From positions 1-35,646 of the forward strand of contig QMQO01000012.1 in the NCBI GenBank assembly GCA_003650545.1: a stretch of 35,646 nucleotides of DNA, written 5' to 3'. Positions within the stretch are counted from its first letter, which is position 1, and each line of letters starts with the position of its first letter. The position numbers and the translations under genes were made by a program. This stretch comes from Candidatus Woesearchaeota archaeon. GTDB lineage: Archaea > Nanobdellota > Nanobdellia > Woesearchaeales > B72-G16. Shown piece after piece: positions 1-34,822 of this stretch. The notes beneath the pieces were generated by a model that saw only the letters and a program-made list of their open reading frames with translations, searched no databases and had not been told where the DNA came from.

Positions 1-190
1 ACAACCAATAAATACATATAAAATGCAATAAAGCATATAAAATGTATAGCTAAGAAAAGAGGTGGTTCTAAGATTATTCTAGAGAGAAACATCAGGCTAG
101 AAGACTAAATAGAATTTTGCTTGAGTAAAAGTGCGTAAGAAAAAAAAATAATAAGATATAAAAATAAAGCAAGAAAACTGTAAAATTTAA

Positions 191-340
191 AGCCCTGTAG
201 TGTAGTGGCCAAGTTCTTGGCTAAGAAGGCTAATCATGTCAGGCTCTGGAGAAGAAGAAAAGCTTTGGAAATACCTGGCGACGGCGGTTCGAAATGATAA
301 AATGACAGTTGTTTTGCTCACGAAAGTCCGCCCAGGGCTA
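191..340 (+). tRNA. tRNA-Gln(CTG) with three introns (213-233 at 21/22, 250-272 at 37/38, 294-326 at 59/60)
   Basis: Acceptor stem AGCCCTG/CAGGGCT plus discriminator A, with the A1-U72 pair typical of archaeal tRNA-Gln. Anticodon stem TCAGG/CCTGG with loop CT-CTG-GA; T-stem GGCGG/CCGCC. Removing three BHB-bounded inserts leaves a normal 73-nt cloverleaf. No encoded CCA. Confidence 0.93.
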
Positions 341-408
341 TTTTAGATGGCTATTTAGATTAATAGGATTAGCCAATTTGAAATCGAAAAATCAAATTAA
401 ACAAAACT

Positions 409-6573: not shown

Positions 6574-7704
6574 CTATCCTATTATATTTCGTTTTCCATT
6601 TTTGAGTTCATAAAACATAAATTCTCTTAACACATCGCCATTTTCGTCTATTGAAATTTTACCTGAAGCTCCTTTCCAATCCTTGACAGAGTAAAGATAA
6701 TCTCTGATACAATCTGTGTTTTCCTCACAAAGTTGCATTGCTTCTGCTATAATGGTAGCTGTGTCGTAAGCATTTGCACCAAAAGTATCATCTTCTATCT
6801 CCTTACCATATTTTGCCTTGAAGGAGCTTTTATAGTACATAAAATCTTTGTCATTATCTGAACGTCCATAACTTGCATATTTTATGCCATCAACAGCAGA
6901 TCCTCCATTCTTCAACACATAATTCAGATCATATGTTTCTCCGCCTAAGATAGGCAGATCTATACCTAACTCCTTAATTTGTGTAGCAATTAATACTGCT
7001 TTTGGTGCAGATAATGGAACCACTAAAATAGCATCAGGTTCTTTAGCAGCAACTTTGATTATTTGTGTCCTGATGTCCTGGTCTGTAGATTCATAAATTT
7101 CCGAAACAATTACTTCTCCATCTAAGGCGTTTAACGATCTTTCAAATTCATCTCTCATGCCAATAGTGTAAGCATTATTTTCATAAATAACCCCTATTTT
7201 TTTATAGCCTAAGATGTTTGCAAGTTTTGCTGCTTGTTTAGCGAAATAGACAGAAGAGCTAGATAATCTAAAAACATAATCTCCTGCGTTAGTTATATCT
7301 GGGCTTGCTGCTATTGGCGATATTAGAATAACTTTATTTTCTTCTGTCAGTGGTGCCATTGCTAACATAGAGCTGCTACAAACTCCATTTATAATTACAC
7401 TAACATTGTTGTCATAAATAAGTTTATTCGCTGCAGTGAGTGCTAATTTAGGGTTACAAGCGCCATCTTCAACTATTAATTGTAATCTCCTTCCCTTTAT
7501 GCCACCATTTTCATTGATCTGATCTATGGATAGCTCAATAGATTCTAATGTGGGTATCCCTATTGCTGAAACTGGACCTGTCAGGGGTCCAATAAAGCCT
7601 ATCTTGATTGTGTTATCCTCTGGGGTTTGACAACCAGACAGACTCACAACTATCAAAATGACCATCAGTGTAATTATAACCTTAGCATGTGTAATCTTGT
7701 TCAT
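6574..7704 (-). CDS. LivK/LivJ-like periplasmic binding protein type 1 (lipoprotein)
   Basis: Signal peptide with LSGC lipobox; IKIGFIGPLTG, IN..GGIKG..L, ED..C.P, YVFR, AYD. Start placed at ATG 7704 because of a GGTGAT RBS. Confidence 0.9.
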   Translation of the reverse strand: MNKITHAKVIITLMVILIVVSLSGCQTPEDNTIKIGFIGPLTGPVSAIGIPTLESIELSIDQINENGGIKGRRLQLIVEDGACNPKLALTAANKLIYDNNVSVIINGVCSSSMLAMAPLTEENKVILISPIAASPDITNAGDYVFRLSSSSVYFAKQAAKLANILGYKKIGVIYENNAYTIGMRDEFERSLNALDGEVIVSEIYESTDQDIRTQIIKVAAKEPDAILVVPLSAPKAVLIATQIKELGIDLPILGGETYDLNYVLKNGGSAVDGIKYASYGRSDNDKDFMYYKSSFKAKYGKEIEDDTFGANAYDTATIIAEAMQLCEENTDCIRDYLYSVKDWKGASGKISIDENGDVLREFMFYELKNGKRNIIG

Positions 7705-7767
7705 GTGTATCACCCAACAAGTGTTATTAAACAATAGCAACAAATAATTATTTAAATATTCTTTCTC

Positions 7768-7778
7768 CCACTCGGTGG
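7768..7778. promoter_or_regulatory. Candidate operator CCAC-TCG-GTGG between divergent TATA boxes
   Basis: Inverted repeat between TATA-like boxes at about 7750-7758 (minus) and 7796-7803 (plus). Confidence 0.4.
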
Positions 7779-7825
7779 TATGTAATTTAAGAAGATTTAT
7801 ATATTAGAAGAATAACTTAACTCCC

Positions 7826-8590
7826 ATGGTAATCCCCATGATTAAGCCAATACTTGAAGATCTTGGATTAACAAAGAATGAAATTGCCGTATATTTAGCA
7901 TTAAACAAGATAGGGAATAGTACTGTTTCTTCAATAATAAAACAAGCTAAAATATCTAGTGGTAAAATATATGAGACTTTAGACAAGCTGATAGATAAAG
8001 GACTAGTAAGTGTAAACATAACCAATAACACCAAACATTTTCAGGCTACAAATCTCCAAAGATTAGAAGATTATGCAAAAGAGAAAGAAAATGAATGGAG
8101 ATTAAAACAAAAAGCTATTCAGGGATTATTGCCACAGATAAGTAAATTAAGAATAAAGAAAGAAAAGATTCCATCAGTTAGAATGTATGTCGGGTTAAAG
8201 GGGTTTAAGAATGCGGTCTATGACGCATTAGACTGTATGAAAAAAGGTGAAGTTATATTGGGGATGGGGATAACATCTAAAAAACAAAATAAAGCGTTAA
8301 ACACATTTTGGTTGAATTTCTCAAAAGAAAGAATCAGACGTAGAATAAAAGTAAGAAATCTTTTTTCTGAGAAGGAAAGTGAATTTATTGATGAATTTAA
8401 AAAAATGAAATATACTGAAAATAGGTACTTAGAAAATATCACACCCAATGCTGTAGACATTTTTGGTGATACTGTGTTGATATTCAGTTATGAAAAAACA
8501 CCCAGTGTAGTTACTATAGAAGATGAGAATGTTGCTATTTCATTTAAAGCGTTTTTCAATAGTTTATGGAAGATTGCTAATAAATTATAA
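7826..8590 (+). CDS. TrmB-family transcriptional regulator
   Basis: LEDLGLTKNE..VYLAL...IYETLDKLIDKGLV winged HTH, coiled coil, C-terminal effector-type domain. Confidence 0.9.
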   Translation: MVIPMIKPILEDLGLTKNEIAVYLALNKIGNSTVSSIIKQAKISSGKIYETLDKLIDKGLVSVNITNNTKHFQATNLQRLEDYAKEKENEWRLKQKAIQGLLPQISKLRIKKEKIPSVRMYVGLKGFKNAVYDALDCMKKGEVILGMGITSKKQNKALNTFWLNFSKERIRRRIKVRNLFSEKESEFIDEFKKMKYTENRYLENITPNAVDIFGDTVLIFSYEKTPSVVTIEDENVAISFKAFFNSLWKIANKL

Positions 8591-8591
8591 C

Positions 8592-8678
8592 ACTATCTCT
8601 TCATAATACCATCTCTTCTATAATACTATTTCTCATATTATCTCTTTGTAAGGCTATCTCTCTATAATACTATCTCTT
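8592..8678. repeat. Degenerate repeat (CTATCTCT..ATAATA unit) between convergent genes
   Basis: About six imperfect copies; the last contains the stop codon of the 8670-10334 gene. Confidence 0.75.
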
Positions 8679-10334
8679 AATAAACGCTTCGTATATGAAG
8701 CTCAGATAGCCAGTAACATAGAAAACAGCGTATATCAAAAAGAATAATATAAAGTAAAATGTTATGAATGGATTTGTTAATAATGTTGCTGTTATTGCGG
8801 ATAAATTATAGTCTAATATGCTCATAAAATAAATGAACACATAATATGTAAAAAATAATGTTGATAACGCAGTCATGATTACTATTGCAGCGTTGTAGAA
8901 GTGTTTTGTAAGATAATAACCAACAACGATAGCTATCACGATGTATAACAATGGCAATAGAAGATTCTGGTTGATTATTGTATGTGAAATTATATCAACA
9001 CCTACAAGATTCTTTGCTAGGATCTGCCTGATAGCAAAAGCAGGGATTGTGAAGAATGTAGTGACTGATACAAAAAATAAAATTACAAGTTTTCTAGGAA
9101 CGATAAAGTGCTTCCGCTTATAGATAACACCCCATATCACAGCAGGAATAACCATTAAGAAGAATAAACCAGTTATGTTTAAGATGTAAAGTATTGGCGA
9201 TAAGATCTTCTTGTACAACGGCTCTGCTGACTTAGCATCGTTTATTATTAAGTTGGATATTGGCTGATGTTGCTCAGGATTAAGTTTCTCATAATACAAT
9301 GTATCTATCAGAATTGGCGCTTTATCTGGACCACGGTCATAGCCTATTGTGTAAGGAAGTACGAATAAACCAACATCCACAATCATGAATAAAATCAGAA
9401 TACCTGAAAATGCAAGGGGTAATGTTTTTTTATCTTTAAAAAGCTCTAGAAATTTCTCATAAAAAGCATCCCCCCAGCTACCTAATTTGAATAAAATGTT
9501 TTTCGCTCTAAAACGCTCCTTGTGTTTCCATATTAGATAAGCAAAGAAAAAAATGCCAGTCATTAGTAATGGAGCATCAATGCCAATTGTTAGCCATTCT
9601 AAGGCTTGATTAGCAATGATGATGTAAAAACCTACTAATATAGCATACACAACACAGAATTTAGGGAATGATTTCATATTTTTTGTAATAGAGTAAACCA
9701 AACTTGGTTTTTTGGCGGGTAGATGCTTTACTATATAAAACGCTAATGCGATCATAGAAATCCCTGCTATGATAAAAAGTACTTTTTCATACACTTGAGC
9801 ATATTTTAATATTAGGAAAAAGAAATAGTTTAATGTTGCTGTACGTGCTTTCAGAAGTAATACTGCACTTTCAATCCCATTTGTAACCTTAATGAAGATT
9901 GAGGGATTTGTTATAGAAATAAGGTTAGTTACATTAGTAGATATAACATAGCTAAGGTTCGTAGGAGAAACAGTAGAAGGAATGTACTGAACTGCTGCTT
10001 TTACACCAAGAGGAACCTGCTCAACAATGTATGGCGTTATTTTTAAAGTAAGTTTTCCTATAGAACCTATGAATTTATAAAACGCGAATAGAAAATAAGT
10101 AAAGATCATTAAGAAGTCTAAATTTTTGTTTTCATTATTAAAGAATATCTTAGTTATACTGATTTTATATAAAAGGTAAAATAACGCTGTATAAGAGATT
10201 ATTTTTTTTATGTAGCTTACTTCTGCAGGGAGAAGCTCAAGAAAATCAAATATATTTAGAAGAATTAAAATAATTATTAGAATCTCTGCAGCATATAGCC
10301 TTATGTAGTTAACACCTCCTTTTAAATATTTCAT
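8670..10334 (-). CDS. Hypothetical multi-pass membrane protein (about 12-13 hydrophobic segments)
   Basis: 554-aa ORF with alternating hydrophobic helices and two soluble loops; no family recognised. Confidence 0.8.
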   Translation of the reverse strand: MKYLKGGVNYIRLYAAEILIIILILLNIFDFLELLPAEVSYIKKIISYTALFYLLYKISITKIFFNNENKNLDFLMIFTYFLFAFYKFIGSIGKLTLKITPYIVEQVPLGVKAAVQYIPSTVSPTNLSYVISTNVTNLISITNPSIFIKVTNGIESAVLLLKARTATLNYFFFLILKYAQVYEKVLFIIAGISMIALAFYIVKHLPAKKPSLVYSITKNMKSFPKFCVVYAILVGFYIIIANQALEWLTIGIDAPLLMTGIFFFAYLIWKHKERFRAKNILFKLGSWGDAFYEKFLELFKDKKTLPLAFSGILILFMIVDVGLFVLPYTIGYDRGPDKAPILIDTLYYEKLNPEQHQPISNLIINDAKSAEPLYKKILSPILYILNITGLFFLMVIPAVIWGVIYKRKHFIVPRKLVILFFVSVTTFFTIPAFAIRQILAKNLVGVDIISHTIINQNLLLPLLYIVIAIVVGYYLTKHFYNAAIVIMTALSTLFFTYYVFIYFMSILDYNLSAITATLLTNPFITFYFILFFLIYAVFYVTGYLSFIYEAFIKR

Positions 10335-13006: not shown

Positions 13007-14362
13007 ATGGATATCTTGTTTAGTTTGCAAAAAGATGGTATTAGAGTTAAATTCGAGAATAGAATATATAATCTGAAATATCCAAAAAAAATTTTCCAAA
13101 AATATCCAACGGCTATAAAAAAAAGTTGGTTTGATAACTTCGCCTATTTATCAACATTGGTTCTTCCTTTTGTTAATCCACGTGTTAATTCATTAAGGTA
13201 TAATACATCTTATCCTTTTTTTAAGTCTAGTTTTGATAAAATAATCTATGAAGGTATCCCTTCTGCTTACACAGACTTTAGTGAAAATGCAAAAGAGTTT
13301 TATAGAAGATTTGTTAACATTAATTATTCTTTTGCTAATTTCAAGATAAAACAGATTCCTAAATATAAACATAAGATGAAGAATAGAGCGGTTGTGGCAT
13401 ATTCTATTGGTAAAGATAGTCAGCTTACATTAGGAGTTGCAAATGAGCTTGGGTTAAAACCTGTAATAATTTATGTGAATGACATGGTTTCACCATCAGA
13501 GAATAAACTAAAGATTGAGTATAGCAAAGCAACTGCCCGTGACCTTGGTCTTGATTTTGTTGAGATTAAAAATGAACTAGAGATACTGAATGATTTTGAA
13601 ACATGGGATAGTCAAGAAACATGTATAAACTACATGCACTTGGTGACAAGCTTTGTGTTTGCTTCTTTACCTGTTGCACATAGCTATAAAGCCAAGTATA
13701 TTTTTATTGGTAACCAAGCAGATATGAGCAGTTCATTTGAGACAAAGCATGGTTATGTTGTGAATCCGTCTACAGATCAGACAATAGAAGCGACTACAGA
13801 ACATAATAGGATGGCTAAATTACTGACTAGCAACCAGACGGGCGTTTATTCTCTGATAAGACCGTTATATAATATTGCGATTACTAAAGTTCTGTTCAGC
13901 AGATACCCTGAAATTGCAAAGTATAACAGCAGTTGTTGTTGTCTAGATGTAAATGATGAAAAAAGATGGTGTCATGAGTGCAGCAGCTGTACAAGAACAA
14001 GTATTTATCTTTTGGCTTTAGGTATCGATCCAAAATTAGTTGGCCTTAGGAGTAAGTTCCTTGATAAAAAACATAAAAAATTTTATACTTTGTTTGATAG
14101 GAAGAGTAAGGATGTCGATGCAGATGATTATACAGACGTTGCAATCGAACAGCAAATGCTTGGATTTTATATGGCTTATAAGAATGGACATAAAGGTTAT
14201 CTGATTGATCTGTTTAAGAGAAAGTTTTTAGACGAAGCTAAGAATCGAGAAGATGAATTGTATAAAAAATATTTCTCTGTTTATGATACACCTGATATTC
14301 CCCGTGAACTGAAGAACAGAGTTATCAATATTTATAAAGAAGAATTGGAAGAGTTTAGATAA
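13007..14362 (+). CDS. PP-loop ATPase resembling the MurL (UDP-MurNAc-L-Ala-L-Glu epimerase) family
   Basis: PP-loop SIGKDS, GNQ...VN.S, YSLIRPL, SSC...WC..C..C zinc site; length about 450 aa. Confidence 0.6.
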   Translation: MDILFSLQKDGIRVKFENRIYNLKYPKKIFQKYPTAIKKSWFDNFAYLSTLVLPFVNPRVNSLRYNTSYPFFKSSFDKIIYEGIPSAYTDFSENAKEFYRRFVNINYSFANFKIKQIPKYKHKMKNRAVVAYSIGKDSQLTLGVANELGLKPVIIYVNDMVSPSENKLKIEYSKATARDLGLDFVEIKNELEILNDFETWDSQETCINYMHLVTSFVFASLPVAHSYKAKYIFIGNQADMSSSFETKHGYVVNPSTDQTIEATTEHNRMAKLLTSNQTGVYSLIRPLYNIAITKVLFSRYPEIAKYNSSCCCLDVNDEKRWCHECSSCTRTSIYLLALGIDPKLVGLRSKFLDKKHKKFYTLFDRKSKDVDADDYTDVAIEQQMLGFYMAYKNGHKGYLIDLFKRKFLDEAKNREDELYKKYFSVYDTPDIPRELKNRVINIYKEELEEFR

Positions 14363-16738: not shown

Positions 16739-17242
16739 TTACTGTGCAGTGATTAGTTCTCCCTTACAATAATGAGAATAGAAATTTAGCTGCTCAATGT
16801 CATTTATCTGCTGTAGTTCTGTAAGAGGGATCTTACAACTAATCTTATTATTCATGATGTCTTCTAATTTTTCTTTTGCAGCTGCTGCATTTTGTTCAAT
16901 CTGCTCTTTTATCTCTGGATTTTTTGTTATCTCTGCTTTTACTGCTGCATCGAACTTATGTAGATCTAAATCTATAATAATAAGCTCTACCTTACAAGCG
17001 TCTCTCTTTAGACCTTTTGACTTCACAATCATAGAAAGATCGTATAAATTAGAAACTTTATTGATTTGTAATTGTGCCGGATGACATACGCTAAAGCTCA
17101 TGAGAAATGGTTGCTGACAATCTTTGTCTCCTGCTGAACAAGAACCAAAGTTTTGTAACTTCACACAGCCTGTTAAAAGTAACACAGCTATCGTCAGCAA
17201 AATCAGCAAGACAATCATAGCTTTTGTTTTTATTTTTACCAT
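16739..17242 (-). CDS. Hypothetical lipoprotein with several cysteines
   Basis: Basic N-terminus, hydrophobic core and LLTGC lipobox; start placed at ATG 17242. Confidence 0.75.
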   Translation of the reverse strand: MVKIKTKAMIVLLILLTIAVLLLTGCVKLQNFGSCSAGDKDCQQPFLMSFSVCHPAQLQINKVSNLYDLSMIVKSKGLKRDACKVELIIIDLDLHKFDAAVKAEITKNPEIKEQIEQNAAAAKEKLEDIMNNKISCKIPLTELQQINDIEQLNFYSHYCKGELITAQ

Positions 17243-17360
17243 CTCTTTATAAAAAATCAAAAAGCATATAAAAAACTTTCTTTTTGTTGTTTTTTGTTGT
17301 CTGAAAGTAAAGCAAAGTTAAACCAAAAATAGTTAAACCAAAAATATAAAAGAGTGAAAG

Positions 17361-20937: not shown

Positions 20938-21083
20938 GCGGCGGTGGTCTAATGGCTATGACAGCGGCCTTCCAATCCTTATAAGAAGATAGCCGCTTAT
21001 CCGGGAAATGTCTCGGACCGTGCATTCGGAAATTCGAATTTCGAAGGGTCATGGCTTTTCTTACGAATGTCCCGGCCGCCGCA
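20938..21083 (+). tRNA. tRNA-Gly(TCC) with three introns (20975-20990 at 37/38, 21006-21032 at 53/54, 21039-21069 at 59/60)
   Basis: Acceptor stem GCGGCGG/CCGCCGC plus A; anticodon stem GCGGC/GCCGC with loop CT-TCC-AA; T-stem CCGGG/CCCGG. Removing three BHB-bounded inserts gives a 72-nt tRNA with a TTCGAAT T-loop. Confidence 0.9.
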
Positions 21084-21196: not shown

Positions 21197-22303
21197 TTAT
21201 TCTAATACAGATAATTTTCTATCTTTTACATTGTATAATTTTGTTTTAATTTGTAGCACCCTATCCTTAAATCCGTTGCTATTCAAAGCAGTAGGGTAAT
21301 CCTTAATAGTTAGTAGATGTTCTTTGATACAATCTTTAGTTACAGGGTTACAGTGCTTTGCTGCTTCTGCTAAAATTATTACTTCGTCATAACCATATGC
21401 TGCAGCAACCAAATCTGCTTTAGATGCATTAGGATGCTTCTCATTGTATTTTTTTGCAAAGTCTGTATCTTCCAAACCATATAAATCAAAGGTTATTATC
21501 CTCTGTAGTGTTTCTTCAGGTATGTTTTTTAAAACTTCATTAGGCACACACTCTGAACCTGATCCACATAAAATATTAAAATCAATATCCATCTCAACCA
21601 TTTGCTGGAAGAACGGTACAAACTCATCTGTCCATCCAACTATGATTATTGTATCTACGCCGTCATCTTTTGCTTTTGTGAATAATGGTTTAAAATCCGT
21701 ATCTCCAAAATTGTACCAGTATTCATTTATGTTCGGCTCGATTTCCTTTGCACCCTTTAAACAAAGATGGCTATACTCTGTCTGAGCTAGGATAGCTCCT
21801 AGTTTTTTAGTTTTATTATTGACTTTTGCATATCTAACCATTTTCTTGCAATCAGACTCTACATCCAAAAATGATTTGAATGCGTAGTCGTTTTCTTCTA
21901 GTATAGATTTTACATATCCCACATATACAAAAGGTGTTTTTTCATCTTTAAAAACAGGCGCAACTGCTAATGATGGCATTGAGAAATCAACTATTGCAGC
22001 GTCTATTTTGTCTATGTTTATAAGTTTCTTTGCCGCCATTACGGTTTCTTTTCCATTAGCCTTGCTATCTTCAATATATAAATCTAGTTTCATACCTTCT
22101 GAACTTATTTTATCTTTTGCAATCTCTGCTCCGTTTATAACAGGAACACCCCAATACGCACCCCACCCTGTTAAGGGTGTGATTATTCCAATTTTTAATG
22201 TTTTTATTGTTTCTTGACTATTTAAAGTATGCGTTGTAGTACAAGCAGACAACAAAATAGCTCCAATTATAACTAACACAAGTACTACATGTATGTTTTT
22301 CAT
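21197..22303 (-). CDS. LivK-like periplasmic binding protein type 1 (lipoprotein), second paralogue
   Basis: LSAC lipobox; LKIGIITPLTG, IEDS, AKKLINID, DFKP, AAYGYD; GAGGTG RBS. Confidence 0.85.
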   Translation of the reverse strand: MKNIHVVLVLVIIGAILLSACTTTHTLNSQETIKTLKIGIITPLTGWGAYWGVPVINGAEIAKDKISSEGMKLDLYIEDSKANGKETVMAAKKLINIDKIDAAIVDFSMPSLAVAPVFKDEKTPFVYVGYVKSILEENDYAFKSFLDVESDCKKMVRYAKVNNKTKKLGAILAQTEYSHLCLKGAKEIEPNINEYWYNFGDTDFKPLFTKAKDDGVDTIIIVGWTDEFVPFFQQMVEMDIDFNILCGSGSECVPNEVLKNIPEETLQRIITFDLYGLEDTDFAKKYNEKHPNASKADLVAAAYGYDEVIILAEAAKHCNPVTKDCIKEHLLTIKDYPTALNSNGFKDRVLQIKTKLYNVKDRKLSVLE

Positions 22304-22376
22304 TTTTACACCTCAACCAGTAATCTATCGTCACCGGCTAATAGTGATAACCAAAGAAGAAACATTTAAATATTTG

Positions 22377-22396
22377 CTACTATATGCATATAGTAG
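22377..22396. promoter_or_regulatory. Perfect 20-bp palindrome CTACTATATGCATATAGTAG, candidate operator
   Basis: Exact inverted repeat 1 nt before the TrmB ATG and just upstream of the minus-strand TATA-like box at 22364-22372. Confidence 0.6.
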
Positions 22397-22397
22397 T

Positions 22398-23162
22398 ATG
22401 AAAAAAATTGAGCCGATCCTTGAAAAAGTTGGGTTAACAAGACAAGAATCCAGGGTTTATGTTGCATTGTTGGAATTGCAAGAAGCCAAAGCAGGGGCTT
22501 TATGCAGGTTCACTAAGATAGCAAGTTCTAATATATATAACATTCTAGATTCCCTGATGAAGAAAGGTATTGTTAGTTATCGTGTTGAAAATAATATAAA
22601 AGTTTTTATACCTTCACCGCCAGAAGTGTTAAATGAGTTATTTCTTGAAAAACAAAAAAATCTTGATAGAGAAAGAAGAGAGATAGCTGAGCTTATACAT
22701 AGCCTTAAAAAAAGAAAGGTTAAAGAAGAACCATACTCTAATTATAAATACTACCAAGGTATAAGCGGACTGAAATCAATGTGGTATGAAATAAATTCTA
22801 TCATGAGCAAAGAAAATATAATAAAAATTCATACAGCCAAAAAGGGAAGTTACGAGAGATTGGTTGGTTTTTATACTGAACACCATAGGTCAAGACAAAA
22901 GAAGAAAGTAGAGGAATGGCTAATATATCCAAAGGAGGACTTAGAGTTAGCAAAAAAAAGAAAGAGAGAATTTAAACGCACAATTATAAAGTTTCTAGAT
23001 TTAAAAAATGATGCTGAATGGGGCATAGTTAAAGATAATTTCTTTATGCAATATGCTATAAGTAAAAAACCTCATGGCTTCTTGATAAAAGATAAGATAT
23101 TTGCAAAAACATTTGAAGAAGTTTTTGACAGACTCTGGAACATTGCAACACATAAGCCATAA
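22398..23162 (+). CDS. TrmB-family transcriptional regulator
   Basis: LEKVGLTRQE..VYVAL...IYNILDSLMKKGIV winged HTH; start placed at ATG 22398 by comparison with the other paralogues. Confidence 0.9.
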   Translation: MKKIEPILEKVGLTRQESRVYVALLELQEAKAGALCRFTKIASSNIYNILDSLMKKGIVSYRVENNIKVFIPSPPEVLNELFLEKQKNLDRERREIAELIHSLKKRKVKEEPYSNYKYYQGISGLKSMWYEINSIMSKENIIKIHTAKKGSYERLVGFYTEHHRSRQKKKVEEWLIYPKEDLELAKKRKREFKRTIIKFLDLKNDAEWGIVKDNFFMQYAISKKPHGFLIKDKIFAKTFEEVFDRLWNIATHKP

Positions 23163-24333: not shown

Positions 24334-24990
24334 TTATATATACCTCAACATCATTTGTTTTTTTTCTTTGAATTTCTCATAGTTCTTGAATTCGTCTACC
24401 CCCAGTTTGTTTAGTTCCTTTAGGATCTTACCTGCTAACTCTGAGCGTTCTTCTTGGATACTTTGTTTTGGTTGGATTAAGTAGTTTAAACTCAGTGTGT
24501 ATTGTGGCGTTGTTATTTGTATAGGTGTTGTCTTTGGAATCGCATCTGCAAAAGCTTTCGTTGTTGCAGCTTCTGGCAATGTTTGGTGCGCAACTACAAC
24601 AGCATTATCTATAGCAGCGAACTTTTGTGTTTCTGTTGTCGCTGATTGTTCTGGTGTAATAATCAGTGTTTCTTTATTTTTGTCTGGTAGATAAAATTCA
24701 CTCAGCATTTTAGAGTCACCTACTGATCTTAATGGAGTGTTATTTTCGTAGTACATTGATGTTATGTTTGGTGTAGTGTTTGTAGTGTTTGTCGTATATT
24801 GCTTGCTGAATAATTCTTTGGTTTTTAGAGAATAGTTAGAGGAGTAACGAGAGCGATAATCAGAGCTATTATAGAGTTCTCTGCCAGCTGTAACAGCAAA
24901 TGGATCGTACTGCTTGTATTGTTTGAAAGGTCTATAACTAACTCTGCCATACGCAGTAATTACAAGTCCTAAGTGTCCTGAACAGACCAT
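24334..24990 (-). CDS. Hypothetical protein, Tyr/Ser/Thr-rich, in an operon with the AAA ATPase
   Basis: 218-aa ORF with AGGTG RBS; its stop is 1 nt from the AAA start codon. Confidence 0.75.
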   Translation of the reverse strand: MVCSGHLGLVITAYGRVSYRPFKQYKQYDPFAVTAGRELYNSSDYRSRYSSNYSLKTKELFSKQYTTNTTNTTPNITSMYYENNTPLRSVGDSKMLSEFYLPDKNKETLIITPEQSATTETQKFAAIDNAVVVAHQTLPEAATTKAFADAIPKTTPIQITTPQYTLSLNYLIQPKQSIQEERSELAGKILKELNKLGVDEFKNYEKFKEKKQMMLRYI

Positions 24991-27248: not shown

Positions 27249-30200
27249 TTATATCTTCAAGCTGACGATCTTGCTCATGCCATGCTCGTTCATGCTAACA
27301 CCATATAATCGATCAGCTTCTGCAATTATACCATCGTTATGGCTTATAACAATATATTGAGCTTTTTCTGAATATTTCTTTATAAGTTCTGATAGCTTCT
27401 GTGAGTTATGCTTATCTAAAGCAGCATCAACTTCATCTAGCACATAGAAAGTGTGAGGATCATATTCTTGGATCGCGAAGATAAATGCTAGCGCTGTTAA
27501 CGTCTTTTCACCTCCTGATAATGAACGGACATCTAAGAATTTTGTACCGGAAAGATGAACCTTTATGTTAACACCCCCATCAAATGGATTATCTAAGTTG
27601 TCTAACTTTAAGAATGCACTACCTTTAGTTGTTAGAGCTTCAAAGAATCTCTGGAAATTTTTATTAACTTGTTCAAATGTAGCAGTGAAAAGTTCTTTCT
27701 TTTTTCCCTCTATCTCATCAATCATTGCAAGCACGTCATTTCTTTCTTTATTCAAAGTTTCTCGTTTTTCTAATAGATTTCGATATTCTCGCTCAGCATT
27801 ATCATATACTTCTAAAGCGCGCATGTTAATACTGCCAAGATTATCTACCAATTTTTCAAAATCAGATATCCGTCTCTTTAACTGCGACTCTGACAGATCT
27901 TCTTGAATTTCTGCTCCTTCGTAACGTTTAAACTCATCTTGTAGAGCTGATATCTCTGCAAGTAATCTTCCTATTTCCTCATTAACAGCGCCACTCTTCT
28001 CCTCGATAGAAATGATTCGTTCCTCTCTCTGTATTACTGATTTTTCATACTCTTGGATTTCATCGTTCAACTTTTGACGTGAACTAAACAGCGTTTTGAA
28101 CTGATTGTAAAAGTCTTTCTCTTGTTTTTCTTTTTCTATTAGCTGTTTCGACATTACTTCTATTTCTTTTTTCAGTTTCCTTATATCGGATTCAAAGTTG
28201 ATTTTTTCTTTTTCAAGTTGTTTTAGAACCTTATTGATATTATCATTCTCAGGCAATAGTATGTTTTGAAGCATCATCTCATCTCCTTTAGCTTCATTGT
28301 TTAGAGTTGTTAGTTGTTCTGCAATCTCTCTCTTCTTTTGTTCAAAGGCATTCAGCTCTGCAATCTTTGCTGGGTGGCGTAGTAAATTGATCTTCTCACG
28401 CAACTCCTGTTTCTTTATCTTGAGCCTAGCAAGTTTTTTGTTTTCTTCTGAAATGTTTGAGATAAGAGTATCAACTTCCTTTTCTTTCTCTGCCAGCTGC
28501 TTCTGTAGATTTTTTTTCTGATCCTTATCTGAATCAACATCACCTGAGTCTAAATGTAAAGATTTTTCCAGCTTAATAATCTCACCTTCTAATTCCGCTT
28601 TGAGTTCACGTAGGCGCATTATCTTTTCTTCATTTTCTTTCTTAGTTGATTCAATAACTGTTAGTTTAGAACTTATTTTTGCAATGTTTGCTGTGATCTC
28701 ATCGATATTATTCTGCAGCTCTTTTTCTTGAAAAGCGTACCCTGTTTTTTTAAGCTGTCTGTAGCCACCTTTCATTACTCCGCTCAGCTCAGAAATATCG
28801 CCATCTAAGGTCACCATCTTTGCTGTTCCAATTCCTAAACGTCTAGCAACATTTATATTGTCAACAACAAGGGTTTCACCAAAGACGTGTGAGAATACAT
28901 TCTTGTATTTATTATCGAATTTGATTAAACCTAGAGCAAGACCATGACATCCCTTATTTTTGGCAAGGTTTTTTGTTTCAGGTTTAATAAAAACAGGCTT
29001 GATCTTGTTTAATGGAAGAAATGTTGCAACACCAAGTTTATTTTCTTTTAGATACTTAATACAGCGGGCGGCTGTTGCATCGTTATCAACAACAAGACTT
29101 TTTATTTTAGAACCTGCTGCTACTTCTAATGCTTGTGCAAATTTTGAGTTAACCTGGCCAAGTTGTGATAGAGTGCCATGAATTCCGCGAATGTTCTTGT
29201 TTTCGAGCAAACGTTTAACCGCAATATCGCCAGCAACGAATTCCTTCATTCCTGCGCTTTTCGCTTTAAGTTTTTCAAGCTCTTCATTTAGCTTTGTTTG
29301 TTCTTCTTTTAACGTGTTAAGATTAATAGAGTTGTTAGTATCTTCTCTTATTGCTATATTAAGTTCAAGAGTTGCTTTTTTGAACAATTGGCGTTTTTCC
29401 CTTAAAATAGCAAGCTGTTCTTTTTGTTCTTTTTCTACTGCTAGGATTTTTTCTATCTTATCATCAACCGACTGTATTTGAAGCTCGATCCTGTCTTTAT
29501 CACGCAATAGATTTTGTTGTTGCTCGCGCATCTCCTGAATCTGTTTCTGGATCGCATCTGCTTCTTCATCTATTTTGTCCATTTCTTCTTCAACTGTTGC
29601 AACATCATCTAGCTTGTGTTTTTTCTTGAATTCTGTTATTTTTGTTTCTACTAGTTTTTGTTCTTTTTGTAAGCGCGCTTTTTCTTTTTCTCTGACCTCT
29701 TGTTTTTTCTTTAAGGCAGATATTTTTTCATCTATTTCTGCTTGTGCTTTCTGTAGTTGTTCAGTCCTTGATTTGATCCTAGAAATTTCGTTCTTGTGAC
29801 TTTCTATCTTGTTCTGCTTACTAGCTTGCTCTATTCGTATGCGTTCAACATCTTTATGGACTTGTAGCTGCTCGGCTTCACCTTTTTCTTCAATCTCTTT
29901 TGAAATCTTGTTGGCTTCAGTTTTGAGTTTTGATATTTTTTCTTTGTACTTAAGGATTTCTTTCTTTAGTTTTTGTATTTTTTTATTGTTCTCTTCAGAA
30001 AGTTTAACAAGGTTGTTTTTTTCAGTTTCTTTTTTCCTGATCTGGATATGGAGATTTGTTGCTTTATAATTATTTATTTGGTCATTTAGGTTCTTGTATT
30101 TTAGAGCTTGGTCACGATCTTTTTTTAGATCTTTTAGATATGACTCCCGCTCAGTTAGAATGATTTCGGCTTCCTTTAGGCGTTCCTCAACTCGTTCTAG

Positions 30201-32426
30201 TTCACGAATTGATTTTGCTTTTTTCTCTTCATATGTTGCAATACCTGCGACTTCTTCTATAATCTTGCGTCTTTCATCTGGTGACATCTCCACAAATCTT
30301 ATGATGTCACCTTGCAAAATTATGTTATATCCGTCAGGGTTTATTTTTGATTTGTCTAACAGTTCTAACACTTCTTGCCTTGTTCTTGTTTTATCATTTA
30401 TTTTGTAAATAGATTGTCCAGACTGTTTTACAATTCTACTTATTTTGATTTCTTCATCTGGCAATGGAAATGTTTTATTTTTGTTGTCAAAGTAGATTGC
30501 TACTTCTCCTTCTTTTGCAGGGTTTTTACTTTTGCCCCCATTGTATATTAGGTTTTTGGACTTCTCAGCACGCATACCTTTAGCAGAGCTTTTCCCAAGT
30601 ACAAATATCAAAGCATCTAAAATATTGCTATTGTGAATGAAAATACTATTGCCAATAAAGTTATGACAGTTAGGAATAGTCAAATCATAAACAAAGGGTT
30701 CTCCTTTAATTTTTCTAATAGAGGTCACTCTATCCCAAAAAATTTCGGAAGATGATATGACTTCAAAAAAATTAACAATTTTAATAGAACTATTAAGCAT
30801 TAATCTTATCTCTCTCTGAATAAAATCATATATTTTCTTAAGGTTCAAAGTTTTGGCTTTTATCTTTGAATCTGTCTTTGAATCAATCTGGGAATCTCCT
30901 CTCCGGTTTGAAGATATGTTTGACTTACCGAATCCAACAGATCCACCTACGAAATCATAAGATATATTCAACTCTTTTAATGTGTTCAAAAGAGAATCCT
31001 GATCTAGAATCATGTTTTTATGAATGTTTCTAATTTTATTTATTCTGTTTTTAAACATGGCTATTATTTCTTTTAGGCTTTTTCTAGTCGGGCAACTCCT
31101 GTTTTCAAGATAAGCTATTAATTTAGGATATTTTTTTCTCAAGGATCTATAGGATAACCTCAAGTCCTGAACGCCTTTTTTAATAAACACATTCACATTT
31201 TGCGGGAGAACATCCACATCCACATTGGAATTTGTAGAATCTGATTTCAGTTTTTTGATTATTATTTCCTCTAATTTTTTTTGTTTTGATGATTTTAAAA
31301 TGATGTTTTGATAAAATTTTTGTAGGTTGCTGTAACCATCTATATAAAGATAAAAATATTTGTCGCTTTTGGTTTTATTTTTAGTTTTTGTTGCACAATT
31401 GCTTTTTTCTTTTTTTCTTGAAATTATTCCGAATCTCAAAAGCAAAAGTTGTAATGTATCAATTAATTTGTTATTTTTAGTACAGTACTCTATTGTGGAA
31501 GTGCCTGACCTTATATAACCGCCACAATCATATAGCCCTGCAATTAAATTTGAGATTACAGAATTATTCGAAATTAGTAGTTCGGGAGGAATATTCTTGT
31601 ACATTGTTAATTTATTAAGTGGGGATCTGAATAGAGTACTTAAAAAATCAGAAATGTTTGTACTAAAACATGAAATTTTTTTAATGTTTTTTTCTATGTT
31701 TTTTTCTCTTCTTTCATGTATATGTACCTTTTTGAATAATTTCTGAACAAGATCCTTAAAATCAGCAACAAGATTTTCGTCGGAGTTAACAAACTCAATT
31801 TTGTTTTTGCTCAGATGACCCTTCCCAATTAAATAGCCTAAAAACCTTGCAAAATCTTCGGTTATTTTTTTGGGAAAATCTATTTTGAAATCTGTTTTGT
31901 TTACATTATTCAGATTTACATATTTTTTGTTTGAGAATTTCAGGATTCTTGGCGTTGCTATAAAATCTTCTTTAGTCAGATCTCGAACTAAAACACTTTT
32001 AACTTCCATTCCTTGAAGCGTCATGACAGGATGACAGCCTGTTGTAACAACCTTCTTACCTGTGTTAGTTGTTATTTCATACAAATATTTTTCTCCTTTT
32101 CTTTTAATAAAAGCAGAAATGTCTTTCTTTACAATCTTCATCGTTTTTGGGTCGAGGCCTAGACAGCGAATAATTTTAGGGTTATCTATTGTAAAGACAC
32201 CATCGTCCATTTTTATATGAAACCTTGAATTTTTTAGATTGTCTTCAACAATGTCTCCTATTTTAACTAGTTCACCATTATCAAGAAGGACTTCTGTGTC
32301 ATAACTACACGACTTCCCGCTACCATTTGGGCCAAGAACAACGTTAAATGTACCTCCAAACGGAATTTCTGTTTTCATGGCAAAGCTTTTGAAGCCTCGC
32401 ATCACCATTTTATTAATCTTCGTCAT
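27249..32426 (-). CDS. smc: Chromosome segregation protein SMC, intein-containing
   Basis: GFKSF, Walker A GPNGSGKS, Q-loop LQG, long coiled coils, hinge GIHG...G.ATFLPL, signature LSGGEK, Walker B LDEVDAALD, ISH. About 1165 aa after splicing. Start placed at ATG 32426 (AGGTGAT RBS). Confidence 0.97.
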   Translation of the reverse strand: MTKINKMVMRGFKSFAMKTEIPFGGTFNVVLGPNGSGKSCSYDTEVLLDNGELVKIGDIVEDNLKNSRFHIKMDDGVFTIDNPKIIRCLGLDPKTMKIVKKDISAFIKRKGEKYLYEITTNTGKKVVTTGCHPVMTLQGMEVKSVLVRDLTKEDFIATPRILKFSNKKYVNLNNVNKTDFKIDFPKKITEDFARFLGYLIGKGHLSKNKIEFVNSDENLVADFKDLVQKLFKKVHIHERREKNIEKNIKKISCFSTNISDFLSTLFRSPLNKLTMYKNIPPELLISNNSVISNLIAGLYDCGGYIRSGTSTIEYCTKNNKLIDTLQLLLLRFGIISRKKEKSNCATKTKNKTKSDKYFYLYIDGYSNLQKFYQNIILKSSKQKKLEEIIIKKLKSDSTNSNVDVDVLPQNVNVFIKKGVQDLRLSYRSLRKKYPKLIAYLENRSCPTRKSLKEIIAMFKNRINKIRNIHKNMILDQDSLLNTLKELNISYDFVGGSVGFGKSNISSNRRGDSQIDSKTDSKIKAKTLNLKKIYDFIQREIRLMLNSSIKIVNFFEVISSSEIFWDRVTSIRKIKGEPFVYDLTIPNCHNFIGNSIFIHNSNILDALIFVLGKSSAKGMRAEKSKNLIYNGGKSKNPAKEGEVAIYFDNKNKTFPLPDEEIKISRIVKQSGQSIYKINDKTRTRQEVLELLDKSKINPDGYNIILQGDIIRFVEMSPDERRKIIEEVAGIATYEEKKAKSIRELERVEERLKEAEIILTERESYLKDLKKDRDQALKYKNLNDQINNYKATNLHIQIRKKETEKNNLVKLSEENNKKIQKLKKEILKYKEKISKLKTEANKISKEIEEKGEAEQLQVHKDVERIRIEQASKQNKIESHKNEISRIKSRTEQLQKAQAEIDEKISALKKKQEVREKEKARLQKEQKLVETKITEFKKKHKLDDVATVEEEMDKIDEEADAIQKQIQEMREQQQNLLRDKDRIELQIQSVDDKIEKILAVEKEQKEQLAILREKRQLFKKATLELNIAIREDTNNSINLNTLKEEQTKLNEELEKLKAKSAGMKEFVAGDIAVKRLLENKNIRGIHGTLSQLGQVNSKFAQALEVAAGSKIKSLVVDNDATAARCIKYLKENKLGVATFLPLNKIKPVFIKPETKNLAKNKGCHGLALGLIKFDNKYKNVFSHVFGETLVVDNINVARRLGIGTAKMVTLDGDISELSGVMKGGYRQLKKTGYAFQEKELQNNIDEITANIAKISSKLTVIESTKKENEEKIMRLRELKAELEGEIIKLEKSLHLDSGDVDSDKDQKKNLQKQLAEKEKEVDTLISNISEENKKLARLKIKKQELREKINLLRHPAKIAELNAFEQKKREIAEQLTTLNNEAKGDEMMLQNILLPENDNINKVLKQLEKEKINFESDIRKLKKEIEVMSKQLIEKEKQEKDFYNQFKTLFSSRQKLNDEIQEYEKSVIQREERIISIEEKSGAVNEEIGRLLAEISALQDEFKRYEGAEIQEDLSESQLKRRISDFEKLVDNLGSINMRALEVYDNAEREYRNLLEKRETLNKERNDVLAMIDEIEGKKKELFTATFEQVNKNFQRFFEALTTKGSAFLKLDNLDNPFDGGVNIKVHLSGTKFLDVRSLSGGEKTLTALAFIFAIQEYDPHTFYVLDEVDAALDKHNSQKLSELIKKYSEKAQYIVISHNDGIIAEADRLYGVSMNEHGMSKIVSLKI
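30630..32309 (-). mobile_element. Intein (560 aa) with a degenerate LAGLIDADG homing endonuclease in the SMC Walker A motif
   Basis: Starts CSYDTEVLL directly after GKS; block B VTTGCHP; blocks C/E FLGYLIGKG and IAGLYDCGG; ends VYDLTIP..HNFIGN.IFIHN, followed by Ser+1 of SNILDAL. Confidence 0.96.
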
Positions 32427-32689
32427 AGTGCCTATCACCTGAGAGTTCTTCCCAGTGGTAATAATAAAGAGATTATTTATAAAGATTTTGTTTTATTTTT
32501 TATTGATTCTTGTCATATTACTTTATTTTTTTTTATTGGCTTGTATCTGCTTTGATAGATATTTATTTTGTAGATATTATTTTCTGATATTCTATATTTT
32601 AGTTGCATTATTTGATTCAATGCTCTTATTTATCTATATTTTAAAATTTATTTTATATCTAAAATTTATTTAAAAATTAAAAAATATTA

Positions 32690-33093: not shown

Positions 33094-33810
33094 TCACCTT
33101 TGTTGTATTTTTGGAGCTTTTTCATACGCGGCTTCAAACAGACGTTTCATTACATCTGCTACTGCTTTGTTTTTTATTAGAACCATTTCATTTCCTGGAT
33201 GTGGAGGGCTTATTAAACTGATTAAAATTCCTCCTTCATAAATTTTAATAGCGACAGCATCGTTATCAAAAGCACGAATGTTTTTATCAATCTTTAACCA
33301 CTTCTTCAAATTTTCCTTTGTTTCTTTATCATATCGCGCTAATGTTTTTAATATAGCCCCCCTCTTTTTTTCTTCTTTAAACTCTTTTATGAAATGATGA
33401 CTGAATTCTGATGTGTATCTTATTTTATATGAAAATTTTCTTGCTTTGACTTCTCTTACTAGCTTGTTAAAGCTGCGAGCACCCTTTGCAACAAAGATTT
33501 GTTCTCTTTCCTTCTCTTCATAATGCTTCTTCAGTTCATTTATATCTTTGTTCAATTGTTCCAACTCACTTCTTCTTTTTTTTAAAAGTTTGTTAAGATT
33601 TTCAGGATCAGAAGCTATAAATAGCTTTATTTTCTCTGGCACGATTTTAACAAGGTGTTTCCTGATTAAAGATTCTAATATATCATAAACCCTACTATAA
33701 GGGACGCCACTGTGTGAAGATATTTTTGAGGCTGAACTTTTACCTAACTTAACTAAAGCTTCATAAACCTTGCTCTCGTATTTGTTCAAACCAAGGATTT
33801 TGAAATCCAT
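33094..33810 (-). CDS. TrmB-family transcriptional regulator
   Basis: LGLNKYESKVYEAL...ISSHSGVPYSRVYDILESL canonical TrmB HTH. Confidence 0.92.
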   Translation of the reverse strand: MDFKILGLNKYESKVYEALVKLGKSSASKISSHSGVPYSRVYDILESLIRKHLVKIVPEKIKLFIASDPENLNKLLKKRRSELEQLNKDINELKKHYEEKEREQIFVAKGARSFNKLVREVKARKFSYKIRYTSEFSHHFIKEFKEEKKRGAILKTLARYDKETKENLKKWLKIDKNIRAFDNDAVAIKIYEGGILISLISPPHPGNEMVLIKNKAVADVMKRLFEAAYEKAPKIQQR

Positions 33811-33942: not shown

Positions 33943-34822
33943 ATGAAAAGCGCAAGAGATGTAGCGATAGCTGTAAAGAATATGGCATTACAAGAATTGC
34001 AAAAGTTAAATTATGTTCAATCAGTAACTTTGATAGGTAAAGAACCTGACAGGGATAGGATTATTGAGAGTGTTAATGATCTTGATACGATTATCATTGT
34101 TGAGGGAGATATGACTAAAGAAAAATATAATAAAATAGAAGAGATTTATATGAAGACTACTGAATTGAGTACACCTGATGTAGATGTTTCATATTCTATT
34201 AAAGATGGACCATTTAAGCCTGTGTCTGAAAAAGAAAAGGAAGTTTTTAGTCATGTTATACTTCACACTGAAGAGTCTTACTGTAGGAGTCCATTAATGT
34301 TAGTTAAGAATTCATGGCAATATGAAATGCCATACTTTGGAAAACCCGTAGCAGAAATTCAGAGTGTTAAAGGGGTTGATGAAGATATGTTGATTAATGG
34401 TGCACTTGGTTTGAACCATTTAATTGGGCTTGTAAAAAATGATGAAAGTGCATATCTTGATTGGGAAGATACAGATTCAGGAATAATGAGATCGAATATT
34501 TTTCCTCTTAAATTTATAGAAGCGAATGAAAGATTAGAGTTTTATTTTTACTCTATATTAAGGTGCGCAAGTAACACATTAAGATGGACTAACTGGGAAT
34601 AACCAGATAGGGATTGGTAAAGAGATGGTTCCTCTATTTGAAAAATATTGTTATGATTTTGCATATAAAAACTTGCCAAGGGAAGCTTATAAAGACAAAC
34701 GTCTAATGAGAAATAGACAATTAGTTTTATCTAAAAGGTTTGCAGATAGATATCAACAACAAACTATTGAGTTTTTGAAAACATTAAAAACTTATGTGAA
34801 AAGACTTAGATGTGAAACTTAG
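33943..34822 (+). pseudogene. Nucleotidyltransferase-fold-like gene apparently split by a +1 frameshift near 34588-34592
   Basis: ORF 33943-34602 has hG-x13-DLD (TLIG...NDLDTIII). The frame of ORF 34625-34822 is open back to 34583, so deleting one base gives a single protein of about 292 aa. Confidence 0.55.

Follow-up and report, generated by a model that had tools for sequence, protein, structure and literature searches.

A probable tRNA-Gln(CUG) gene with three BHB-type introns in a Woesearchaeota-like DPANN archaeon

Architecture of the tRNA-Gln(CUG) gene

The window, that is, the whole 35.6-kb stretch of DNA analysed here (35,646 nt), carries near its start a tRNA-Gln(CUG) gene at positions 191-340 of the plus strand, in which four exons are separated by introns in the D-loop, the anticodon loop and the T-loop. 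Exon 1 (191-212) comprises the 5' strand of the acceptor stem, U8-A9, the 5' strand of the D-stem and the D-loop up to A21, and is followed by a 21-nt intron (213-233) at D-loop position 21/22 with a relaxed HBh' motif (H 4, h 0, h' 5). Exon 2 (234-249) provides the 3' strand of the D-stem, G26, the 5' strand of the anticodon stem and the residues C32 U33 C34 U35 G36 G37, with the anticodon CTG at 246-248, and ends at a 23-nt intron (250-272) in the canonical position 37/38, a BHB motif with one C.A mismatch in its central helix (H 3, h 7, h' 4). Exon 3 (273-293) holds A38, the 3' strand of the anticodon stem, the variable loop CGAC, the 5' strand of the T-stem and the T-loop sequence TTCGAA; a 33-nt intron (294-326) at T-loop position 59/60, with a strict hBHBh' motif (H 4, h 5, h' 3), separates it from exon 4 (327-340), which contains T60, the 3' strands of the T-stem and the acceptor stem, and the discriminator A340, CCA not being encoded. 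The intron positions 21/22, 37/38 and 59/60 were assigned by alignment to the standard tRNA numbering.

The exons account for 73 of the 150 nt, and the introns (21 + 23 + 33) for the remaining 77, the share of more than half that the earlier note, made from the letters alone, had counted. The acceptor stem consists of seven perfect base pairs (AGCCCTG, 191-197, with CAGGGCT, 333-339), and the four exons are colinear within 150 nt, so the gene is neither split nor permuted. The beginning of the acceptor stem (AGCCC...), the pair A1-U72 and the discriminator A are common to the tRNA-Gln genes of all 10 relatives compared, and this kinship, together with the anticodon CTG, identifies the product as tRNA-Gln(CUG). 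An A/T-rich, TATA-like element (ATATAAAAATAAA; 156-168, plus strand), read by eye and lying ~23-35 nt upstream of the mature 5' end, is a candidate archaeal promoter, and TTTATAAA-like boxes occur at similar distances from the tRNA-Gln genes of relatives; the assignment is tentative because the genome has a GC content of 33%. A TTTT run (341-344, plus strand) directly after the discriminator is a candidate terminator.

Identification and integrity of the tRNA-Gln product

ARAGORN, with or without its intron mode, called no tRNA in the raw window. Rfam at the gathering threshold returned no match in the whole window, and in E-value mode it gave five weak matches in the whole window, none of them a tRNA, and nothing but weak miRNA/snoRNA-like noise for positions 100-450. 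The expectation that standard finders overlook genes of this kind is thus borne out for ARAGORN and Rfam, at this locus as well as at the second tRNA locus described below. Splicing was done in a script, and ARAGORN was run on 11 variants in two modes. With all three segments excised, it reported a 73-nt tRNA-Gln(ctg), and in intron mode the excision of the D and T introns led to the same tRNA-Gln(ctg) with a 23-nt intron. No call was obtained for the variants with none, only the D, only the anticodon, or both the D and anticodon introns excised, and aberrant "tRNA-Ser" calls came from the variant with only the T intron excised (intron mode) and from that with the anticodon and T introns excised.

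ARAGORN was also built into a scanner that looked for BHB candidates together with a 7-bp acceptor stem. On the two strands, 1,183,808 spliced variants yielded four matches, all at 191-339, namely the three-intron Gln solution, a two-intron Pro-tgg and two forms of a two-intron Ser-aga. Six dinucleotide shuffles (580,800 variants) yielded a single match, a two-intron "tRNA-SeC", in runs with an extra T-arm prefilter under which the real window returned the same four matches. Looser first BHB criteria, which had produced 38,428 candidates on one strand, were discarded.

A profile HMM was built from six intronless tRNA-Gln genes of relatives. The earlier note had proposed scoring the 73-nt spliced product as a check, and against this profile the product reached 62.4 bits over positions 1-73 of 73, while the unspliced gene scored 23.5 bits. 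Retention of intron 1, intron 2 or intron 3 lowered the score to 50.3, 51.3 and 48.3 bits, respectively, and in the last case the match was truncated to positions 1-59. The acceptance by ARAGORN of the other scanner solutions would fit a two-intron tRNA of another isotype, either Pro(UGG), with 221-260 and 294-326 removed, or Ser(AGA), with 294-326 and either 227-270 or 246-279 removed. However, these forms score 49.6, 41.7 and 34.8 bits against 62.4 bits for the three-intron product, on a profile that favours Gln by construction; they share the acceptor stem, the D arm and the T arm with the Gln solution and differ from it only in a poorer middle, and their BHB motifs are weaker (h + h' = 5, versus 5 to 11 for the Gln introns). 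A different isotype is hardly credible on these grounds, and the Gln assignment is kept.

Two covariance models, R1 and the general tRNA model R2, were built from the tRNAs of relatives alone. The top R1 matches in the window fall at the tRNA-Gln locus, at 261-340 (17.1 bits, with a 34-nt T-loop insert) and at 191-246 (15.0 bits). Covariance-model matches in the window are partial (8.5-21 bits) because the models cannot span three introns. The tRNA-Gln(CTG) gene that the earlier note had placed at 191-340, with introns in all three loops, is therefore upheld by ARAGORN, the scanner, the profile, the covariance models and the pairing pattern, and the boundaries proposed there are the top-scoring ones.

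The failure of standard finders at the locus would also be expected of a decaying tRNA-Gln pseudogene, which had accumulated insertions and was no longer spliced or used, another copy supplying tRNA-Gln(CUG); the relaxed motifs at two of the three introns, which are not minimum-energy folds, and the confinement of the data to a 35.6-kb window of the genome are compatible with such decay as well. However, the stems of the spliced product are intact, with 20 of 21 cloverleaf pairs forming and the single exception, U13.U22, being common to 5 of the 10 relatives compared, and against every one of these relatives the gene shows three to eight compensatory pair changes, in which both sides differ and pairing is kept. 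The exons have a GC content of 62%, compared with 35% for the introns and 33% for the window. In addition, all three inserts end precisely where a 4-bp helix and 3-nt bulges predict, two of the intron positions are kept in the orthologue at a relative's locus (L024), and the tRNA-Gly gene in the same window has the same design. Taken with these observations, a pseudogene appears quite improbable, and a functional three-intron tRNA-Gln gene is the reading followed below.

Splice motifs and folding of the precursor

The D-loop motif has a central helix formed by GGCC (207-210) and GGCT (228-231), bulges AAG (211-213) and AAT (232-234), and an inner helix of TTCTT (214-218) with AAGAA (223-227). 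It is classed as a relaxed HBh' motif because an outer exon helix is absent. The earlier description of this motif holds for the central helix, the bulges and the coordinates, but not for TTCTT/AAGAA, which it had taken to be the outer helix and which is the inner one. The anticodon motif has a central helix of CTCT (244-247) and GGAA (267-270), in which a C244.A270 mismatch and one T.G pair occur, an inner helix GAAG/CTTT, and the anticodon stem as its outer helix; the relaxed BHB with a C-A mismatch described for the intron at 250-272 is thus confirmed. The T-loop motif consists of the central helix TTCG (288-291)/CGAA (321-324), bulges AAA (292-294) and AGT (325-327), the T-stem GGCGG/CCGCC outside and a 3-bp inner helix. 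For this intron (294-326), the "textbook" BHB of the earlier note is accurate, the motif being a strict hBHBh' that is present in the minimum-energy fold of the precursor. The same label fits only one of the three introns, because relaxed motifs, which are not favoured as local folds, occur in the D-loop and the anticodon loop. As is characteristic of the BHB family, each intron is delimited either by 3-nt bulges around a 4-bp helix or by one of the accepted relaxed variants (HBh'/hBH), and the presence of a strict hBHBh' motif in only one of the three concerns the subclass and not the family.

The 150-nt precursor has a minimum free energy of -48.5 kcal/mol (z = -2.73, 200 shuffles), compared with -41.6 kcal/mol for the best fold containing all three BHB motifs. 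The BHB conformer of the D arm (-6.3 kcal/mol) is 2.5 kcal/mol less stable than the local minimum-energy fold (-8.8 kcal/mol), and that of the anticodon arm (-4.4 kcal/mol) is 2.9 kcal/mol less stable than its local minimum (-7.3 kcal/mol). Protein binding could be what selects the BHB conformers of these two arms.

The sequence GGCYAAK is present three times (207, 219 and 228) across the D-loop exon/intron boundary, and other D-loop cuts are therefore conceivable. The gene might then be real, with its D-loop insert cut elsewhere, for example at 214-234, which would leave G22, or processed differently. The product of the 214-234 cut scores 61.8 bits versus 62.4 bits, and in the D region the lowest energy belongs to another hairpin, of 7 bp (206-212/217-223), as this possibility would allow. 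BHB cleavage falls after the second bulge nucleotide, however, and an intron at 213-233 is the only one for which both cuts obey this rule in 3-nt bulges, with a full 4-bp central helix and a 5-bp inner helix. In addition, this excision yields the junction GGCCAA|TCAT, the very sequence found in three relatives' genes whose D arm has no intron (L005, L051 and L052). A different D-loop cut is very unlikely in view of these features, and 213-233 is retained as the D-loop intron.

In the non-canonical introns, the exon strands of the central helices lie within palindromic exon words (GGCC, TTCGAA). An insert that carries a partial copy of such a palindromic word forms the 4-bp helix automatically, and these words are a possible clue to the origin of the introns and to the recurrence of position 59/60.

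A second three-intron gene, tRNA-Gly(UCC)

A hitherto unreported tRNA-Gly(UCC) gene lies ~20 kb from the tRNA-Gln gene, at 20938-21083 of the plus strand, and likewise contains three introns. The first (20975-20990, plus strand) is a 16-nt intron at 37/38 with the central helix CTTC/GAAG; the second (21006-21032, plus strand) is a 27-nt intron at 53/54 with the central helix TCCG/CGGA and a 5-bp inner helix; and the third (21039-21069, plus strand) is a 31-nt intron at 59/60 with the central helix TTCG/CGAA. The gene came to light as the third R1 match and as the top R2 match (20938-21025, 21.1 bits, E 1.6e-4). For a tRNA-Gly(tcc) call by ARAGORN, the two T-arm introns must both be excised. 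The spliced gene scores 40.6 bits versus 17.0 bits unspliced, and 20 of its 21 cloverleaf pairs form. All other R2 matches in the window are inside ORFs and score below 8 bits, so the window contains two tRNA loci, each with three introns. That the one further tRNA locus present matches the tRNA-Gln gene in its number of introns strengthens the earlier suggestion that this lineage has heavily intron-invaded tRNAs.

The two T-arm introns of tRNA-Gly are nested. The outer helix of the 59/60 motif appears (h 0 to 5) only once the 53/54 intron has been removed, and because both motifs share T-stem nucleotides, an obligatory splicing order, 53/54 before 59/60, is predicted. The final scanner did not recover the tRNA-Gly gene in the window, being blind to it because the 59/60 outer helix exists only after removal of the 53/54 intron. 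TTCGAA-like copies are present at 21025, 21033 and 21040, and an alternative pair of cuts (21006-21039 and 21046-21069) would give an identical mature tRNA-Gly.

Genomic context and host affiliation

The window has a GC content of ~33% and encodes housekeeping proteins of archaeal type (Pfam, across the window), including uS15, a DHH-CID RecJ/GAN-like protein, AlaRS, an XPD-like helicase, Nre, an intein-bearing SMC protein and RNase HII. Relatives of uS15 were found at 59 loci in a species-representative genome set, the closest having 54-63% identity, and nearly all of these loci belong to MAGs labelled Woesearchaeota, Nanoarchaeota/Nanoarchaeia or Parvarchaeota, several others being labelled "uncultured Methanosarcinales". 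For AlaRS, the top non-self match has 66% identity, and the names shown among the at least 120 matches listed are Woesearchaeota, Nanoarchaeota or Nanoarchaeia. The relatives of neither uS15 nor AlaRS point to a host in Thermoproteales or Crenarchaeota. Judged from these protein relatives, the host is a DPANN archaeon of Woesearchaeota-like affinity for which no close representative has been sequenced, and it has no kinship to Thermoproteales. A Pfam search of 26 ORFs in the window gave no match to the EndA (tRNA-intron endonuclease) or RtcB ligase families.

Several other features of the window were recorded. The SMC protein (1729 aa; 27249-32438, minus strand) contains an intein near its N-terminal ATPase, with a LAGLIDADG homing-endonuclease domain (Pfam Intein_splicing and LAGLIDADG_3). 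Two divergent gene pairs (6574-8590 and 21197-23162) each consist of a Peripla_BP_6 periplasmic-binding-protein gene and a gene for a TrmB-family regulator, and a third TrmB regulator is encoded at 33094-33810. Five ORFs of 173-554 aa have no Pfam match at E <= 0.001: 8670-10334 (minus strand), 13007-14362 (plus strand), 16739-17260 (minus strand), 24334-24990 (minus strand) and 33943-34602 (plus strand).

tRNA genes in the loci of relatives

ARAGORN in intron mode detected 40 tRNAs in the 59 uS15 loci of relatives (831 kb) and called an intron in 11. In the same loci, R2 with default filters gave 45 matches, comprising 28 of 72-77 nt (65-84 bits), 13 full-model matches of 90-153 nt (35-61 bits) and four weak or partial ones; these counts are lower bounds, because default filters would miss genes as disrupted as the two in the window. 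With the filters off, the six loci closest to the window in uS15 sequence (90.6 kb) contained four tRNA loci, three intronless and one with a single intron, indicating that heavy disruption is not general among relatives. Disruption of tRNA genes in the clade is thus widespread yet patchy, and the six introns in two genes of the window are the extreme among the loci compared.

In L022, L028 and L043, as in the window, uS15 has a tRNA-Gln gene immediately upstream, and the mature tRNA-Gln of the window is identical to those of the 10 relatives in 48-62 of 73-78 aligned columns. Intron positions are clear in the alignment of these genes (A4); the pair counts were made on spliced products, because the 3' strand of the anticodon stem is misaligned in two of its rows. 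A canonical intron is present in tRNA-Gln(TTG) genes of L024, L028 and L039. The nearest counterpart of the window gene is the tRNA-Gln(CTG) gene of L024 (1603-1754), which is of the same isotype and has introns at the same positions, 37/38 and 59/60, but has only these two. The tRNA-Gln(TTG) gene of L017 (5565-5677) has a D-loop HBh' intron and a canonical intron, and that of L041 (6101-6234) has a D-loop insert (from alignment A4 and reading), an anticodon-loop insert and six extra nucleotides after TTCGAA; the scanner gave no solution for this L041 gene. L017 and L041 thus resemble the window gene in having HBh'-type D-loop introns without an outer helix, but theirs follow G15, whereas that of the window gene follows A21. 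None of the genes from L024, L017 and L041 has three full BHB introns.

The 13-nt T-loop of the L041 gene (TTCGAA + CGAAAC + T) is too short for a BHB hairpin and, judged from its sequence, may be the remnant of a lost 59/60 intron. Inserts following TTCGAA were also seen at L041 734-867 (minus strand) and L028 2504-2589 (minus strand). At L028 9543-9775, upstream of uS15, the 5' part of the tRNA-Gln(TTG) gene occurs twice in tandem ahead of the gene itself, which has a 17-nt canonical intron (starts at 9543, 9615 and 9687); the arrangement looks like a partial tandem duplication of the tRNA gene. ARAGORN also called a tRNA-Thr with a 453-nt intron at L043 19580-20213.

Proposed maturation of the tRNA-Gln precursor

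In its Woesearchaeota-like DPANN host, the segment at 191-340 very probably serves as a functional tRNA-Gln(CUG) gene, which would be expressed as a precursor of ~150 nt with three BHB-type introns spliced by proteins. This reading is supported by the arrangement of exons and introns, by the motifs, by how well the product scores and covaries, and by the fact that a second gene and relatives show the design again. By analogy with the established archaeal pathway, transcription, cleavage and ligation would follow, and the EndA would have to accept relaxed motifs in loops other than the anticodon loop. Transcription from the A/T-rich promoter would yield the ~150-nt precursor, in which each intron and its flanking exon would fold as a BHB or a relaxed HBh' motif, with the splice sites in 3-nt bulges around the 4-bp helix. 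EndA would cut at 212|213 and 233|234, at 249|250 and 272|273, and at 293|294 and 326|327, and an RtcB-type ligase would join the four exons into the 73-nt tRNA. Since CCA is not encoded, its addition after splicing is proposed. The three motifs of the tRNA-Gln precursor are structurally independent, and any cutting order would be possible.

Motifs outside the anticodon arm that lack an outer helix need a broadened EndA, which may be an (alpha-beta)2 enzyme, an epsilon2 enzyme or, in DPANN, an alpha4 enzyme with an L3 loop (PMC5829648). A relaxed EndA in the host lineage is thus a reasonable expectation from this literature (PMC5829648), and because the host is not crenarchaeal, the enzyme would be expected from the literature to be of a different type from that of Thermoproteales.

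Implications and comparison with known intron-rich tRNA genes

Neither multi-intron tRNAs in archaea nor disrupted tRNAs in DPANN lineages are new to the literature. The presence of up to three introns per gene is an established feature of archaeal tRNAs, and strict, relaxed and nested introns have all been described (PMC8450103). Among DPANN archaea, Kaneta et al. 2018 reported an EndA with an L3 loop and increased tRNA disruption, including multiple-intron genes, in an analysis that included one Woesearchaeota and one Pacearchaeota genome (PMC5829648), and the incomplete tRNA sets of DPANN genomes were taken there to point to undetected disrupted genes (PMC5829648). A search of the literature, which took in the running text of PMC5829648, returned no description of three-intron tRNAs specifically in Woesearchaeota.

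The present genes are of value mainly for annotation, as hidden DPANN tRNAs, and because they show three-intron and nested-intron genes cleanly in a lineage new for them. Because ARAGORN and the Rfam tRNA model miss two good tRNA genes in this window, DPANN surveys that report missing tRNAs may miscount. Among 208 complete Nanobdellota genomes, tRNAs for all 20 amino acids were found by tRNAscan-SE in 96, and split (trans-spliced) tRNAs were raised as a possible cause (bioRxiv 10.64898/2026.05.13.725050). With six introns in two genes, the sole tRNA loci in 35.6 kb, the lineage might have some three introns in each of the majority of its tRNA genes, or in every one of them, although this is doubtful. 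If true, it would represent the densest archaeal tRNA intron load known, relative to a comparison maximum of 71 introns in 46 genes (PMC8450103), and such hidden genes could explain the tRNAs apparently missing from complete Nanobdellota genomes (bioRxiv 10.64898/2026.05.13.725050). With two triple-intron genes within 35 kb of a DPANN genome that is AT-rich and mesophile-like, heavy intron invasion now reaches further than Thermoproteales and Asgard archaea. These two genes and the tRNA-Gln genes of relatives, with one or two introns, make up a natural series in which the gain and loss of introns and their co-evolution with EndA specificity can be studied, and the nested 53/54 and 59/60 introns of tRNA-Gly add a prediction about the order of splicing.

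Thermoproteales have a mean of 0.84 introns per tRNA gene, with 71 introns in 46 tRNA genes in Pyrobaculum calidifontis (PMC8450103). The genes of the window resemble those of Thermoproteales in having up to three BHB-type introns at canonical and non-canonical sites, and the tRNA-Gly gene is nested in the same way; unlike those genes, they belong to a 33%-GC, Woesearchaeota-like DPANN host and not to a crenarchaeon. The DPANN tRNAs of Kaneta et al. 2018 come from the same superphylum as the present gene (PMC5829648). One eukaryotic nuclear tRNA gene has introns distributed over the same three arms, but it is processed by a eukaryotic endonuclease. In the Asgard lineages Atabeyarchaeia and Freyarchaeia, introns are present in 92-95% of tRNA genes, more than half of which have several, and many of these introns are non-canonical and some genes are missed by tRNAscan-SE (PMC11291895). 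Their tRNA sets are likewise intron-rich; they belong to a different superphylum, and the likeness to the genes described here is one of intron load (PMC11291895).
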